Assembly: GCA_964418365.1 (NCBI GenBank)
Contig: CAYQLM010000001.1
Coordinates: 24,490 to 88,489, forward strand
Direction of reading: 5' to 3'
DNA from: an uncultured Dehalococcoidia bacterium
GTDB lineage: Bacteria; Chloroflexota; Dehalococcoidia; DSTF01; RBG-16-68-14
DNA: 64,000 nt
Part shown: positions 25,871-59,965 of the stretch, piece by piece
How positions within the stretch are numbered: the stretch's first letter is position 1
How the letters are laid out: each line of letters opens with the position of its first letter
The notes under the pieces: model-generated
The model's input: the letters and a program-made list of their open reading frames with translations, nothing else
Told to the model about the DNA's origin: nothing
Database searches by the model: none
Translations under genes and position numbers: made by a program

Positions 25871-28066
25871 CTAGCGAGTGCAGCTGACGTTGTACTCACT
25901 GATCGAGATCCGGATATCGATTACGGTGACGGTTCCGTCGCTGTTTAAGTCCGCCCGCGGATCGTCCATGCGGTGGTAGTGCTGGAGTACATAGATGATG
26001 TCGTTGATCGTCACCTTGCCGTTGCCGTCGAAGTCGGCGCAGGGCCAGGGCATCGGCGTCGGCGTCGGGGTGATCGTCGGTGTCGGCGTGATGGTCGGCG
26101 TGTTGGTGATCGTCGGCGTGTTGGTCGCCGTGAACGTGGGCGTCGGCGTCGGAGCGAGGATGAGGGTCTGCACCTGGGCGATATTGTTGGCGTATGACGA
26201 CTCCGGCGCGACATTGGTTACGAGCAAGCGGTTGGCCGCGGCTGAAGCCGTTAGGGTCGTATCGGAGGACACGGCGACGCGCCCGCTCAACGTGATCGTC
26301 GCCCTGTCATTCGGATGGAACGTTCCAGGGAAGGAGCAACTGAGCGTGCCCGTGGAAACGATGACGCACGTACCGCAAAAGAGCCCGCCGCCGGTAAGCG
26401 TGATGCAGGTACCGGTGAAGTCCGTTGTAAAGGTGGCGATGACGAGGCTTGGGGCATACTGCACGAGCGCTTCGATGAAATATGGCCGGCCGGTCGTCGG
26501 GTTGATGTCATTCACAACGTCGAGCCCGCCAATGTTCGTAACAGCGGCGGTATAGGTGAATATGGATCCGCTTGGTACTGGGTTTTGACTAACGTCCATG
26601 GTCGCCGCCAGATCGCCTGGGGGTGGCGCCGGCGTTGGGCTGGGCGTCGGTGTTCTTGTAGGCGTGGGCGGCGGGGAGACCGTGATCGAGGCCTGGGCAT
26701 CGTTGTTCGCCTCACTGAACTCAGCTACCTCATCAAACGGATCGACGGTGGCCGAATCCACAAAGACGCCCTCCTGCGTCATGTAGCCGCCGATCGTGAC
26801 CGTGGCCACCCCGCCTGCCGGCAGCGCGCCCAGATCGCAGTCCAGCTCTCCGCCAGTCAGAGACCCCAGCAGCGTGCAACTTCCAGCCGAAGCCGAGAAC
26901 GATGTATAGACGAAGTCAACGGGCGGGTTGTGCGCCAGCCGCACCGGCGCCACGGCTTGGCCGCCCACGTTGCGCACCTGGACCGTAAGCGTAAGCGGAT
27001 CGTTGCCTCGAACGGGGTTCGGAGTGGGGACGATCGTTACGGTCAGGTCGCCAGTGAGCGGCGTGGGTGTGAACGTAGCGGTAACCGTAGGCGTATTGGT
27101 CGGCGTGGCGGTCGATGTCGGCGTGCGGGTCGCCGTCGGCGTGCCAGGCGTCGGTGTTCGCGTGGCCGTGCGGGTCGATGTCGCCGTATCCGTAACTGTC
27201 GCCGTGGGCGTTGCCGTGGGCGCCAGCACCTGCGTCGTCGCTAGGGACGTGTTATTCGCCTCGTTCGACTCCGTCACGATGTTGTTAGGGTCGACGGTCG
27301 CCGTGTTCGTGACATTCGTGTCGACGCCTGCCGCGACGTAGCCGGTGACCGTCACCGTCGCGATGGCGCTCGGCCCCGTGCCGAAGGCGCCGAGGTCGCA
27401 GTCCAGCAGGCCGCCGGTGACGCCGTTCCTGAGCGAGCAGGCGCCACGCGTTGTGCTGAAGCCGGTGTACGTGAAATTGGCCGAGGGCTGGTCGATCAGG
27501 CGGACCGCGCTCGCGGGGGCGTTGCCCAAGTTGCGCACCTTGAGGGTGTAGTTCAGTGGCGCCCCGCCCACTACCGGGTCCGGGCTGTCTGTCGTCGTCA
27601 CGATCAAATCGACTCCGTTTGCCAGTGTCGCGGTCGGGGTGAAGGTGTTGGTCGGCACGGGCGTGAAGGTGTTCGTGGGCACGGGCGTGTTGGTAGCCGT
27701 AGGTGTGAATGTGTTGGTCGCCGTCGGCGTAAAGGTATTCGTTGGTGTTGGCGTAAGGGTGTTGGTCGGCGACGGCGTGAAGGTGTTGGTCGGTGAAGGC
27801 GTGAAGGTGTCGGTTGGCGTTGGGGTGAGAGTGTCGGTCGGCGACGGCGTGAAGGTGTCGGTTGGCGTTGGGGTGAGAGTGTCGGTTGGCGTTGGGGTGA
27901 GAGTGTCGGTCGCCGTTGCCGTCTCGGTGGGAGTATCCGTCTCACCCAGCGCCATGCCAGGGCGGGACGGCTGGCTGGACAGGGCGACGAGGGACACGGC
28001 AACGAGCGCGCCCACGAGGAGGCCCGCCACGATGCCCAGCCTGAGGTGTGGCAGCGCCCGACTCAT
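25871..28066 (-). CDS. Secreted protein with DUF11-type repeat domains, Thr/Pro linkers and a C-terminal dockerin-like module
   Basis: 731 aa with a signal peptide. Two DUF11-like repeats ([20 protein letters not shown]..., [20 protein letters not shown]...). The C-terminus has paired Ca-loop-like motifs ([40 protein letters not shown]). Confidence 0.75.
27798..27925 (-). repeat. Tandem 48-bp coding repeat (about 2.7 units) encoding a [16 protein letters not shown] linker
   Basis: Near-identical units GGCGTGAAGGTGTCGGTTGGCGTTGGGGTGAGAGTGTCGGTCGGCGAC on the plus strand. Confidence 0.8.
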
Positions 28067-33485: not shown

Positions 33486-34382
33486 CTACTGTCCGGGCTG
33501 CATCCTCAGCCACGCAAAGTACCGGTCGATGCCATCCTTGTAGCCCTGCGCGATCGCCTGGCGGGTCTCGTCGCGCTGGAGGACGGCGGCCTCCGTATCG
33601 TTCGAGACGAAGAGCGCCTCTCCGATCATGCCCGGCATGTTTGTCGGCCGAAAGCCGGGCACATCGCCCAGGAGGAACGTGTGGCCCTCGCCCGTGAGCG
33701 CTGCCGCCGCCGTCGCGCTGTCGCTCAGCACGCCACGTGGCGGCGACTCGTAGCCGCCGTCGCGCAGCCGCGCGATGATCTCGTTGTAGATGTCCGTCGC
33801 CAGGACACCGCTCGCCGCTCCGAAGGAGCGATCGGGATTGTAGTAGACCGACGTCCCGGCCTGGCGCGCGTCGTTCGAGCCGTTGTGGTGGATCGCGAGG
33901 ATGATGTCGGCGCCCGCTGCGTTCGCCTTGTCCGCGCGCGCCTGCGATTCGTTGCGCGTCGTGGCGGCGAAGTCGCCGGGGACGGCCGGCGTGAGGCCGT
34001 AGTCGTCGTCGCGGATCATCACCGTCCGGTAGCCGCCGGCGCGCAGGAGCAGATCGAGGCGTCGCGCGACGTCTAGATTGAGGTCCTTTTCGACGAGATC
34101 GACCTCACCCTGGGCGTTCTTGTGCACAGCGCCGACGTTGTCGGGGCCGCCGTGCCCGGCGCTGATCGCGACGGTGTAGGTGCGCGGCTGCGGCGTCTCC
34201 GCCGTGGCGACGGGCGTCACCGCGGCTGCTGGGGGCGGAGTTCTCGACGCTGCCGTCCCCGTCGGGAGCGCCGTTCGCGGAGTCGGAAGGGATGATGTGT
34301 CGCGCGTGCTGCATCCGGCGCCCAGTAGGAACAGGGTGACGCTCGATAGAGCAACGAGGCGTGGGAGCGATAAGAGGCGCAT
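33486..34382 (-). CDS. N-acetylmuramoyl-L-alanine amidase (Amidase_3), probable lipoprotein
   Basis: Signal peptide plus LLGAGCS lipobox. Catalytic region VAISAGHGGPDNVGA...E...LAIHHN; start taken at the internal ATG 34382. Confidence 0.78.
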   Translation of the reverse strand: MRLLSLPRLVALSSVTLFLLGAGCSTRDTSSLPTPRTALPTGTAASRTPPPAAAVTPVATAETPQPRTYTVAISAGHGGPDNVGAVHKNAQGEVDLVEKDLNLDVARRLDLLLRAGGYRTVMIRDDDYGLTPAVPGDFAATTRNESQARADKANAAGADIILAIHHNGSNDARQAGTSVYYNPDRSFGAASGVLATDIYNEIIARLRDGGYESPPRGVLSDSATAAAALTGEGHTFLLGDVPGFRPTNMPGMIGEALFVSNDTEAAVLQRDETRQAIAQGYKDGIDRYFAWLRMQPGQ

Positions 34383-34434
34383 CGACTCTGGTGACGAGAG
34401 GTCGGTGAATCGTACCACGTGCTACCCTGCCCGC

Positions 34435-36127: not shown

Positions 36128-38464
36128 TCAGTTGCAGTTCTGGTGGTACAGCCGCGCGATCAAGAGGATGTCGTCGGTGCTCATCTTGCCGTTCGGCGGG
36201 CCTAGGTTCCAGTAGTTCGGCCCGACGAGTGTCCGGTCGTAGTCAGGTGAGTAGTCCGGCGAGCTCGACGTCTGGCCATACTGCCGAGCGACGAGGAGGA
36301 CGTCAGCCATCGTGTGCTGCCCATCGTGGTTCGGGTCGAAGAAGTCCCACTGGTTCACCGGGTCCCGGCGTCCGCCGAACCACTCATTGGGCCCGAGCTC
36401 CCGCGTATCGCCGCAGGCATCGTGGTCTGTATCAGCGCCCGAGCCCTGGTCGAGGTTGGTGGGTGAGGCGCAGTGAATGTGCACCGAGTCCGCGACCTGC
36501 GTACCGCCCTTCGTGTAGGAGTTCAGCCAGATGCGGTTGCCGTAGATCGATGGGCGGTTGAAGAAGCTCACGGTCGCGCCGGCGCCGCCGACGATGTCGA
36601 TCTGGCCAGCGGTCGTCCCCGCGCCACAGGAGAAGTGGATGTTGGCCAGGATTCCGCGGTAGCTCTCCAGCGTGCCTTTGCATACCAGGACGTACTGTCC
36701 GGGTTGGCCGTTCGCCGGCTGCGTAAGCGTATCTGAACCGTAGTTGGGGCAACCGGGCCAGCGGTTCTCCGTGATCCCCTGCTGGTCCCAGAGCGTGAGG
36801 TTGCCGGTGTAGCGGATGACGATCTGGTAGCCGCTGAAACCTCTGGGGGGCGGCGAGCTCTTTACATCGACGCTGAAGAACGAGCTCGGCAGCAACGAAC
36901 ATGTTCGGCCCACAACTCCCGGCCCGCACACGAGCGGCGACTTGCTCCAGTTCGGGTAGACCAGCTCTTGCATCGCTGGTCCAGGCACGTCCGTCGGAGA
37001 CGGCGTAAAGGTCGGCGTGCTCGTGCGGGTGGCCGTCCGCGTCGGCGTGTTGGTCTTCGTCGGCACCAGCGTTGCGACTACCACCGTGCTTGTCGGTGTG
37101 CTCGTGCGCGTCGGGCTAAAGGTCGGCGAAGGCGTAGCCGTCGCCGTATTGGTCGGCGTAAAGGTGTCGGTCGGTGTATTGGTCGACGTTGGCGTGTCGG
37201 TCGGCGTGAAGGTGTCCGTCGGCGTCGGCGTCTTGGTCGCCGTGCCCGTTGCTGTTGGCGTAAAGGTGTTCGTCGGCGTTGCGGTGTCGGTCGGAGTATC
37301 GGTCACCGTGGGCGTGTCGGTGACCGTTGGCGTGTTGGTCGGCGTGAACGTCGGCGAAGGGGTGATGGTATTGGTCGGCGTGAAGGTATCCGTCGGCGTC
37401 GGCGTGATCGTCGGCGTATCCGTCGCCGTAGGAGTGTCTGTCGGCGTCGGCGAATGAAGGAACGTGGGGGTCACCGTCGGCGTGCTGGTCGGCGTGCTGG
37501 TGGCCGTTGGCGTGAACGTGTTGGTTGCCGTTGGTGTCGCTGTGTCGGTTGCGGTCGCCGTGTTCGTAGGCGTGCTGGTAGCCGTATTCGTCGCCGTATT
37601 CGTCAGTGTGTTGGTGGGCGTATTCGTTGCGGTGTTCGTTGCCGTACTGGTGGGTGTCGGGGTTCGGGTGGCCGTATTGGTCGGGGTCGATGTGATGGTA
37701 GGCGTCCGGGTGGCTGTTGGCGTCAAGGTGCGCGTCGGCGTCAAGGTAATCGTTGGCGTCCGAGTGGCTGTTGGCGTCAAGGTCCGCGTCGGTGTCCGCG
37801 TTGGAGTCAGCGTGGGGCCCCCCGGCGTGATCGTACGGGTTGGCGTCGACGTGATCGTCGGAGTCGGCAACACCTGGCAGTTAATCGTCAGCGACTCGTC
37901 CGCCGCCTCCGAGTGCGGCGCTAAGCTTGCATCGACAAGGTCAGTACTGCCGTCCCCGTGTACAAGGGTGAGGATCCCCTGTCCGACGCTGTCGCAATGG
38001 AAGTCCAGATGCATGAGCTGGCCGACGTAGAAGGAGGTGCCGAAGGACGCGCAGGCGGTCTTCGCGTCGCCGGCGCCAAAGCCGCCTTCACCGGTCGGGA
38101 ATGTGCAATCCGGCCAGTTGCCCGCCCCCTGCTGTGACAGGGAGCCGGCGGCGTAGCTGATCGCGCCGGAGTACATAATCTCCACGTCATAGCCGGCGTA
38201 TCCGCCGGCCGTGAGCGCGGCTCCAAGGGCCTTGACGTTGAAGCCCACCGTGAAATTGGCACCACTGCCCGCGATGCACGTGGTTGGCCCCGAGCTGCTG
38301 TCGCACGTGCCCGTTGAGATCGAGAGGTCGAGCCCTGGTTCGACGACGGCGTGGGCGTTGCCCAAATGACTTGCCAGGAGCCAGCTAACGGTGCCTAGCG
38401 TAGCTACGACGAGGACGAGGGCAACAGCGAAGCGTGGGGAGTACCAGATGCGCAAATTCGCCAT
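36128..38464 (-). CDS. Secreted protein: two paralogous Cys-containing domains separated by a roughly 315-aa Thr/Pro linker, with a C-terminal dockerin-like module
   Basis: 778 aa, signal peptide. The C-terminus has [24 protein letters not shown]...[23 protein letters not shown]. Roughly 65% identical to the C-terminus of the 58118-59965 protein. Confidence 0.75.
36920..37865 (-). repeat. Extended low-complexity coding repeat (TPTxTxTPT linker) within the 36128-38464 gene
   Basis: Degenerate 6-12 bp periodicity (GGCGT/GGTGT/GTCGG). It generates spurious ORFs on other frames (e.g. 36968..37924, 37017..37457, 37464..38030). Confidence 0.8.
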
Positions 38465-58117: not shown

Positions 58118-59965
58118 TCATGAGCAGTCGTGGTTGTACTGTCTTACGCTGTCCAGGATGTCATCGATGCGGATCTGGCCGTTCGGTGCCCCCAGGTTCC
58201 AACTGTTCGGGCCGATATAGGTGCGGTCGTAGTCGCTTGAGTAGCCCGCATCGCCTGTGTTCTTCCCGTAATGCGACGCAACGAGAAGGACATCATCGAT
58301 GCGGTTCTGGCCGTCGTGCGACGGATTGAAGTAGTCCCAGGGGTTGAGGTAGTCGCGCCGGCCACCGCTCGTCTGGCTGCCGATGGCCGTCTGCTGCTCC
58401 TTCAGGTCGGGACAGCCGTCGCCGTCGCTGTCTCCGGCCGTGCAGGCCACGGCGTTGTCGTAAAAGACCTGCTGGCCGGTGGCGGTGTTGCCCGTCCACA
58501 CCGCATGCGCGACCCGGCTGATGACCGCCACGCCGATGTACTCGCCGATGCGCAAGGTGCCCGAAGGGGGGAACCTGTCCGGCGCTCCCAGGTCGGGATC
58601 GAACGCCACGTCGTTGATCCGCACCTCGGGGCCGAAGGTGATGCCGCCGTTGCCGCTACTGCGCATGTACACGTCGAGGAGGAGATCGCCGCTCCCGTTC
58701 GTCGCGCCCGCCCGCGAGTCGTACCATTCAACGGTCAGGCACTGCGAGACAGGGTCGATCGCCGCCGTTGGGAAGAGCTGGTGGCTATTGCCGGGGCCTT
58801 TGTCGACTTGGACGGGCGCGCTCCAGGTCGCCCCGCTGTCGAACGAGCGGGTGATGTAGATAGCGGCGTCGTCGTTCGCGCCGCCATGCGCCGTGTTCGT
58901 GGGGTCATCGGACGCCACGACGAACACGACGTTCGCCGCTGCCGGATCCGGCAGCAGCCAAGCCTGTCCCGACCCGTGTGTCCACGTCCGGTTCTTGTTC
59001 AACGTCCTCGGCAGGCTTTGGATGTTGTACGTGATGTCGCCGTTGCCTGGGGTGTACGCCAGCGTCTTCTGCGGGTAGGTCAGGCCGCCGTCCGTCGAGC
59101 GGGCAACAAATATTTGCGCCGTAGTGCCGTCGGATATGAAGCCCGGCACGGAGCGGTACGAGACATACACGTCGCCATTGGCCGCGACGGCGTTGTGGGT
59201 CGGCGTCACGAGGCCGTCGGCGCCGGTCGAGAGCGTAACCGCCGGTGTCCACGTCTGGCCCTGATCGCCGGACGATGTGGCATTCACTTGATTCGGGATG
59301 ATGCAATTCGCCCCCGTGAACTGCGTCCAGACGATATACAGCCGGTCTTGGAAGGGGCTGCCCGCGAAGCGATCGGCCGCCGACCAGGCCTTGTCATGAC
59401 AGTTGCCGCTGATCCCTGGCAGGTTCACGCCGGGTGATGCTGTGACGTTGACAGGATAGCCCGCGAGGATGGCTCCCGTCGCCGGATTCACCTGCGCAAT
59501 GAAGATATCGATCTCGTTGTAGTTTGTGGCGATGCAGCCGAGGTACGTCCAGAAGAGCCGTCCGGCGCTGTCGAACGCTAGCGACGAGTCTCCGCATAGG
59601 ACGTGCGTCCCGGGGACAGATTCCGGTGTGGCAGTGGACCAGTTGATACCGGCGTCTGTTGAGACACGCAAGCTATACAGGTCGGCCGCCGCGATGTTCA
59701 TCGAGTTCAGCGGGTTCGCGGCGATGGCCGGCTCGTTCGTGCCACCAAAGGCAACATCCGCGCCCGCTGAACCTGCGGCCTGACCTGCACCTCGCGTGGG
59801 TAAGCTCGGGGCGCCCACCGCTGGCACGGCCGAGGGGCCGACGGAGGCCGGGGGCTGCTGCGCCGAGACGTCGTCGAGAAGGAGGGTGAGACTCGCGAGG
59901 ACGAGCGCCAGGGCAAGGAAGAGCACGACAGGAATCCGAGGTCTTGCGCGTCGAGAGGAAGGCAT
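58118..59965 (-). CDS. Secreted BNR/Asp-box repeat (sialidase-like beta-propeller) protein with a C-terminal dockerin-like module
   Basis: Five Asp-boxes (STDAGINWS, SGDQGQTWT, STDGGLTYP, SFDSGATWS, SGNGGITFG). C-terminus DYFNPSHDGQNRIDDVLLVASHYG...APNGQIRIDDILDSVRQYNHDCS. Start ATG 59965 (GGAGG Shine-Dalgarno); the ORF extends to 60025. Confidence 0.8.
   Translation of the reverse strand: MPSSRRARPRIPVVLFLALALVLASLTLLLDDVSAQQPPASVGPSAVPAVGAPSLPTRGAGQAAGSAGADVAFGGTNEPAIAANPLNSMNIAAADLYSLRVSTDAGINWSTATPESVPGTHVLCGDSSLAFDSAGRLFWTYLGCIATNYNEIDIFIAQVNPATGAILAGYPVNVTASPGVNLPGISGNCHDKAWSAADRFAGSPFQDRLYIVWTQFTGANCIIPNQVNATSSGDQGQTWTPAVTLSTGADGLVTPTHNAVAANGDVYVSYRSVPGFISDGTTAQIFVARSTDGGLTYPQKTLAYTPGNGDITYNIQSLPRTLNKNRTWTHGSGQAWLLPDPAAANVVFVVASDDPTNTAHGGANDDAAIYITRSFDSGATWSAPVQVDKGPGNSHQLFPTAAIDPVSQCLTVEWYDSRAGATNGSGDLLLDVYMRSSGNGGITFGPEVRINDVAFDPDLGAPDRFPPSGTLRIGEYIGVAVISRVAHAVWTGNTATGQQVFYDNAVACTAGDSDGDGCPDLKEQQTAIGSQTSGGRRDYLNPWDYFNPSHDGQNRIDDVLLVASHYGKNTGDAGYSSDYDRTYIGPNSWNLGAPNGQIRIDDILDSVRQYNHDCS

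Follow-up and report, generated by a model that had tools for sequence, protein, structure and literature searches.

The tails of the three secreted proteins (A, B and C) encoded in the 64,000-nucleotide stretch of Dehalococcoidia DNA analysed here (the window) are of two module types and do not constitute one new family of three. Judged from their sequences, B and C are members of the catalogued NCBIfam family NF041520 (flexitail), whereas the tail of A, about 60 aa long, is a different, shorter dockerin-like module. We consider it rather probable that both types are extracytoplasmic, calcium-stabilised, dockerin-like docking modules which hold secreted proteins on a surface partner. The Chloroflexota are abundant, mostly uncultured and mostly single-membrane, and little is understood of how they attach proteins to the cell surface. 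The genes of the window are themselves ordinary members of catalogued families; what is new and useful is the proposed dockerin fold, which turns the unexplained flexitail label into a mechanism that is open to test, namely calcium-dependent docking to a partner.

The coordinates and domain order of the three proteins are given in Table 1. All three are long minus-strand open reading frames that lie where a sequence-only reading of this DNA had placed them, and each has an N-terminal hydrophobic signal or anchor segment. The reading frame of B (781 codons) is conserved on the JGI contig Ga0136847_10183676, and the 615-aa product of C has an exact match in an NCBI-sourced collection. An orthologue of C (L002) has a tail 81% identical to that of C, and tails more similar than this were not encoded in the species-representative genome collection. 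A Pfam scan bore out the description of A as a DUF11-repeat protein (DUF11, 85 bits, with CARDB repeats in addition), and the two Cys-rich domains of B are paralogous: compared directly they show only a weak similarity (E 8e-4), yet intermediates bridge both. With regard to the BNR beta-propeller proposed for C, BNR matches are present, but all of them are below threshold (BNR_2 reaches 25.2 bits, the cutoff being 31.4). The Cys near the protein end, which the same reading had pointed out, lies 2-4 residues before the stop in each case (SCTR in A, NCN in B and DCS in C), and the loop-helix strings that it quoted are present in the sequences. A census of the window by tblastn and HMMs on six-frame ORFs revealed no tails besides the flexitails of B and C and the A-type tail of A.

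Table 1. Positions of the three proteins, their tails and other domains in the window
Feature	Position	Strand	Description
Protein A	25871..28066	minus	731 aa; long ORF; order: N-terminal hydrophobic segment, Thr/Pro linkers, DUF11/CARDB-type repeat domains, Thr/Pro linker, A-type dockerin-like tail
A-type tail of A	25874..26059	minus	short Cys-bracketed dockerin-like module, two 12-residue F-hand loops
Protein B	36128..38464	minus	778 aa; long ORF; order: signal peptide, Cys-rich domain 1, ~300-aa Thr/Pro linker, Cys-rich domain 2, flexitail
Flexitail of B	36131..36451	minus	last ~107 aa, ending LYHQNCN; NF041520
Cys-rich domain 2 of B	36461..36952	minus	aa 505-668; paralogue of domain 1
Thr/Pro linker of B	36953-37864	minus	~300 aa
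Cys-rich beta-type domain 1 of B	37865..38350	minus	aa 39-200
Protein C	58118..59965	minus	615 aa from MPSSRR start; longest ORF to 60025; order: signal peptide, BNR/Asp-box-like beta-propeller (sub-threshold), flexitail; without Thr/Pro linker
Flexitail of C	58121..58441	minus	last 107 aa; NF041520

Searches with the NCBIfam HMM gave 91.5 bits for B and 88.6 bits for C against the flexitail model (cutoff 40), with model positions 1-107 covered in both, whereas A, searched as a whole protein, did not match. Since both scores are far above the cutoff of a curated model, the family is not novel, contrary to one of the earlier suggestions. Nor do the three proteins share one module of about 95 aa: the tails of B and C are 49% identical across 107 aa (E 1e-35), whereas the shorter tail of A is 24% identical to them, with E ~1e-3 when the three sequences alone are compared and E 0.05-0.15 when the window is searched. 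Profile comparison (hhalign) nevertheless aligned the A tail, from end to end and including its terminal Cys, with the last 74 columns of the module shared by B and C (76% probability, E 2e-5), leaving a 15-residue gap. This alignment, together with the Cys-bracketing and the PW...DG...DI(I/L)...Y...C pattern common to both types, would fit a single homologous family of about 95 aa with one function and one partner. We find such a family quite improbable, as A has neither a counterpart to the N-terminal 30 residues of the flexitail nor the 15-residue DRT..WNLG insert, is not matched by NF041520, and falls within a recurring module family of its own (the HMM built from related A-type modules gives its tail 82.6 bits). 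Moreover, the two types stand adjacent to each other in single proteins (see below), for which there would be no need if both had the same function.

The tail of A came close to established dockerin models while staying below their cutoffs. It scored 17.1 bits (E 0.006) against Pfam Dockerin_1, whose gathering threshold is 22.9, and against NF041540 (dockerin_GC, cutoff 29) the full protein scored 23.0 and the isolated tail 28.6 bits, the tail aligning with positions 3-67 of the 67-position model. Its best match in the PDB was the NagH dockerin 2jnk (E 0.002). These values point to a near-threshold dockerin, in agreement with the dockerin-like character that had been proposed for this tail. 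It resembles the GC-type dockerins of NF041540 in length class and in its terminal Cys residues, and its A-type relatives in sister MAGs score lower than A against that model or not at all. A search of the literature on GC-type dockerins or dockerin-like modules in Chloroflexota found nothing relevant.

The flexitail of C begins with a TSP3-like loop, D-S-D-G-D-G-C-P-D-x-x-E, which is followed by a GGRRD..NPWDYF segment, a first loop-helix (NPSHDGQNRIDDVLLVA), a DRT..GPNSWNLG excursion, a second loop-helix (LGAPNGQIRIDDILDSVRQY) and the terminal HDCS. The core of the flexitail is an internal duplication, seen as DG-x-N-R-V-D-D-I-L in the first half and NG-x-Q-R-V-D-D-I-L in the second. Loop 1 (N-P-[TS]-x-D-G-x-N-R-V-D-D) has ligand-type residues at positions 1, 3, 5 and 12, while positions 1 and 3 of loop 2 (L-G-P-P-[ND]-G-x-Q-R-V-D-D) offer neither an acidic nor a polar ligand, which makes the calcium stoichiometry and a canonical dual binding mode doubtful. 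The two D-x-[DN]-x-[DN]-G-x5-D loops ascribed to all three tails can accordingly be upheld for A, where both 12-residue loops read as canonical, and for the first loop of B and C, but not for their second. All 202 flexitails compared have two invariant Cys, one within the TSP3-like loop and the other 1-3 residues from the end, and D20, D22, E29, D50, D64, D86 and D108 are invariant as well.

Based on a 74-sequence alignment, AF2 modelled the flexitail of C with a pLDDT of 96.2 (an earlier alignment of 10 sequences gave an unusable model, pLDDT 48). The model has helices at 48-55 and 92-100, which begin at loop position 10, and when it was used in a fold search against the PDB, dockerins were the only matches. 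The flexitail is thereby predicted to fold like a dockerin, and the dockerin-like nature claimed for the tails of B and C gains from this high-confidence model. At the sequence level, membership in the dockerin family had to be rejected: Pfam Dockerin_1 (PF00404) matched none of 74 flexitails at E<=0.1, nor B or C, the flexitail profile reached dockerins in the PDB only at E 0.07-0.13, and hhalign of the flexitail against a clostridial dockerin (an approximate query sequence) gave no match.

Dockerins of PF00404, of cellulosome types I, II and III and of the non-cellulosomal NagH protein of C. perfringens were used for comparison. The flexitail shares with them a duplicated loop-helix architecture, apparently of the F-hand type, and the C-terminal location on diverse secreted proteins with many carriers per genome. 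The ends of the module are probably also tied together as in dockerins, whose termini are held by an intramolecular clasp that is needed for stability and cohesin binding (PMC3821032). The clasp of dockerins is non-covalent, whereas that of the flexitail is probably a disulfide. The flexitail further differs from dockerins by its extra TSP3-like N-terminal loop, an excursion of about 35 residues between the helices and its degenerate second loop, and from cellulosomal dockerins by a cargo that is not cellulolytic. The opening D-x-D-x-D-G-x-x-D-x-x-E is shared with TSP3_bac (PF18884), which gave weak matches in 6 of 74 isolated flexitails, and genuine TSP3_bac repeats were found upstream of the flexitail in 7 of 87 carriers. 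Unlike TSP3 repeats, the flexitail loop occurs as a single copy, is fused to a dockerin-like core and has an invariant Cys inside it.

Taken as docking modules, the two types are best envisaged as follows. The flexitail would be an extracytoplasmic module of about 105 aa in which a TSP3-like calcium loop, D-x-D-x-D-G-C-P-D-x-x-E, precedes a core of dockerin fold, i.e. two 12-residue loops, each followed by a helix, with canonical calcium ligands in loop 1 only; its two invariant Cys would most likely be linked by a disulfide, a covalent version of the dockerin clasp. The A-type module would be a dockerin-like pair of canonical F-hands of about 60 aa, bracketed by two Cys. Both would fold after Sec export and mediate calcium-stabilised, non-covalent docking with different specificity, so that beta-propellers, proteases, esterases and adhesin-like repeats would be held by a partner on the cell surface of these Chloroflexota. 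If such a partner exists, the docking would amount to a large system of the cohesin-dockerin type that is not part of a cellulosome, and protein engineering would gain new docking pairs that are orthogonal and stabilised by disulfides.

The partner need not be a protein. The tails might instead bind a cell-wall or S-layer glycan, an exopolysaccharide or a mineral or metal surface, or be mainly domains that stabilise or solubilise in a calcium-dependent manner. Unlike dockerins, the flexitail has no known cohesin partner. Profile searches recognised no cohesin in the window, as the sequence-only reading had noted; neither a cohesin nor another partner was encountered there or in the DNA that flanks related loci, and cohesin (PF00963) was not detected among 87 flexitail carriers. 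In addition, the excursion Y..DRT..GPN.WNLGPP and the TSP3-like loop are absent from canonical dockerins, loop 2 is degenerate, and the organism has peptidoglycan-related genes (Amidase_3 at 33486-34418), all of which would suit a non-protein ligand or a stabilising role. We still regard this alternative as rather unlikely, given that the PDB fold matches of known function are all protein-protein docking modules and that proteins with two different tail types are easier to understand as bridges between two partners. That many surface-type residues are strictly conserved also suggests one conserved macromolecular partner, for which a glycan would still qualify.

The flexitail is widespread and is carried by a great many secreted proteins, which amount to thousands of sequence clusters and probably to dozens per genome. 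A search with the flexitail profile retrieved 2,056 representatives of 50%-identity clusters at E<=1e-3 and 1,353 at E<=1e-10. One peptide pattern alone identified 44 loci in five Chloroflexota MAGs, at least 19 of them in a single Dehalococcoidia MAG, and the similarity is thus not mere paralogy of two genes. The cargo is varied: 59 Pfam families, including RCC1, BNR_4, PD40, FG-GAP, subtilase and esterases, were found among 87 proteins. The module of B and C thus resides, as had been claimed, on diverse secreted proteins, of which there are many per genome. The claimed Thr/Pro linker in front of the tail applies to A; in B the linker lies between the Cys-rich domains and C has none. It is not a defining context of the flexitail family either, as only 6 of 190 tails are preceded by a TP-rich 40-mer. 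The family has no experimental characterisation and is already catalogued as 'putative surface protein'; no relevant paper was found for 'flexitail' or the accession NF041520.

The flexitail ends at most 3 aa from the C-terminus in 168 of 202 cases (83%). This position, the large number of paralogues per genome in which it is joined to unrelated cargo (the usual signature of a sorting domain) and the NCBIfam name would all suit the C-terminal sorting tag suggested earlier, that is a signal removed or cross-linked by a dedicated enzyme as in the LPXTG/sortase, PEP-CTERM/exosortase and T9SS C-terminal domain systems. However, the tail ends (QYNHDCS, LYHQNCN and EYNVSCTR) have no transmembrane helix, hydrophobic stretch or basic tail, and a sortase-like gene is absent from the window. 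Moreover, the flexitail forms a compact domain of about 105 aa that is modelled with confidence and has presumed disulfide and calcium sites, and the T9SS-type secretion domain is a beta-sandwich, unlike the flexitail. The C-terminal location is not strict either: about 10 of the 202 flexitails (~5%) are internal or N-terminal, three proteins carry two copies, and 24 of 202 extend 4-30 aa beyond the final Cys. Removal or cross-linking as a sorting signal thus appears highly improbable.

Both tail types were also found together in one protein. Three small proteins (P0001, P0135 and L012) consist of a signal peptide, an A-type module and a flexitail only, and in a fourth protein (P0045) the two modules occur with linkers between. 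That both are present in single small proteins speaks for separate binding modules rather than for sorting signals that are cleaved off, and it fits two such modules of different specificity.

The Cys-rich domains of B were considered as a possible receptor for these modules. Their family has six conserved Cys and is covered by no Pfam or NCBIfam model; a word-indexed homologue search with the domain profile gave unannotated fragments only. In the PDB, the family profile had a single, weak match, the ScaC cohesin 5lxv_A (E 0.06), and phmmer searches of the PDB with two divergent members gave none. The identification of these domains as cohesins was not supported by other searches: Pfam Cohesin matched 0 of 32 family members at E<=0.1, hhalign of the Cys-rich domains against a CipA cohesin (96% identical to the UniRef CipA entry carrying PF00963) and a 7-sequence cohesin profile gave probabilities of at most 1%, and the CipA cohesin HMM scored them no better than shuffled sequences; the weak match to 5lxv_A remains. 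One may speculate, although we think it unlikely, that the six-Cys domain acts as a cohesin-like receptor in a non-cellulolytic, cellulosome-like assembly at the surface, where the A-type module and the flexitail would be two orthogonal, disulfide-clasped modules of dockerin fold, B-like proteins, with two receptor domains and a tail, the scaffoldins, and the small proteins that consist of both tail types alone the adaptors. If true, scaffoldins and adaptors would assemble by themselves into a protein network on which propellers, proteases and esterases are displayed. The B-type Cys-rich domain is present in 43 of 202 flexitail proteins, and in the related loci it is nearly always accompanied by one of the two tail types.

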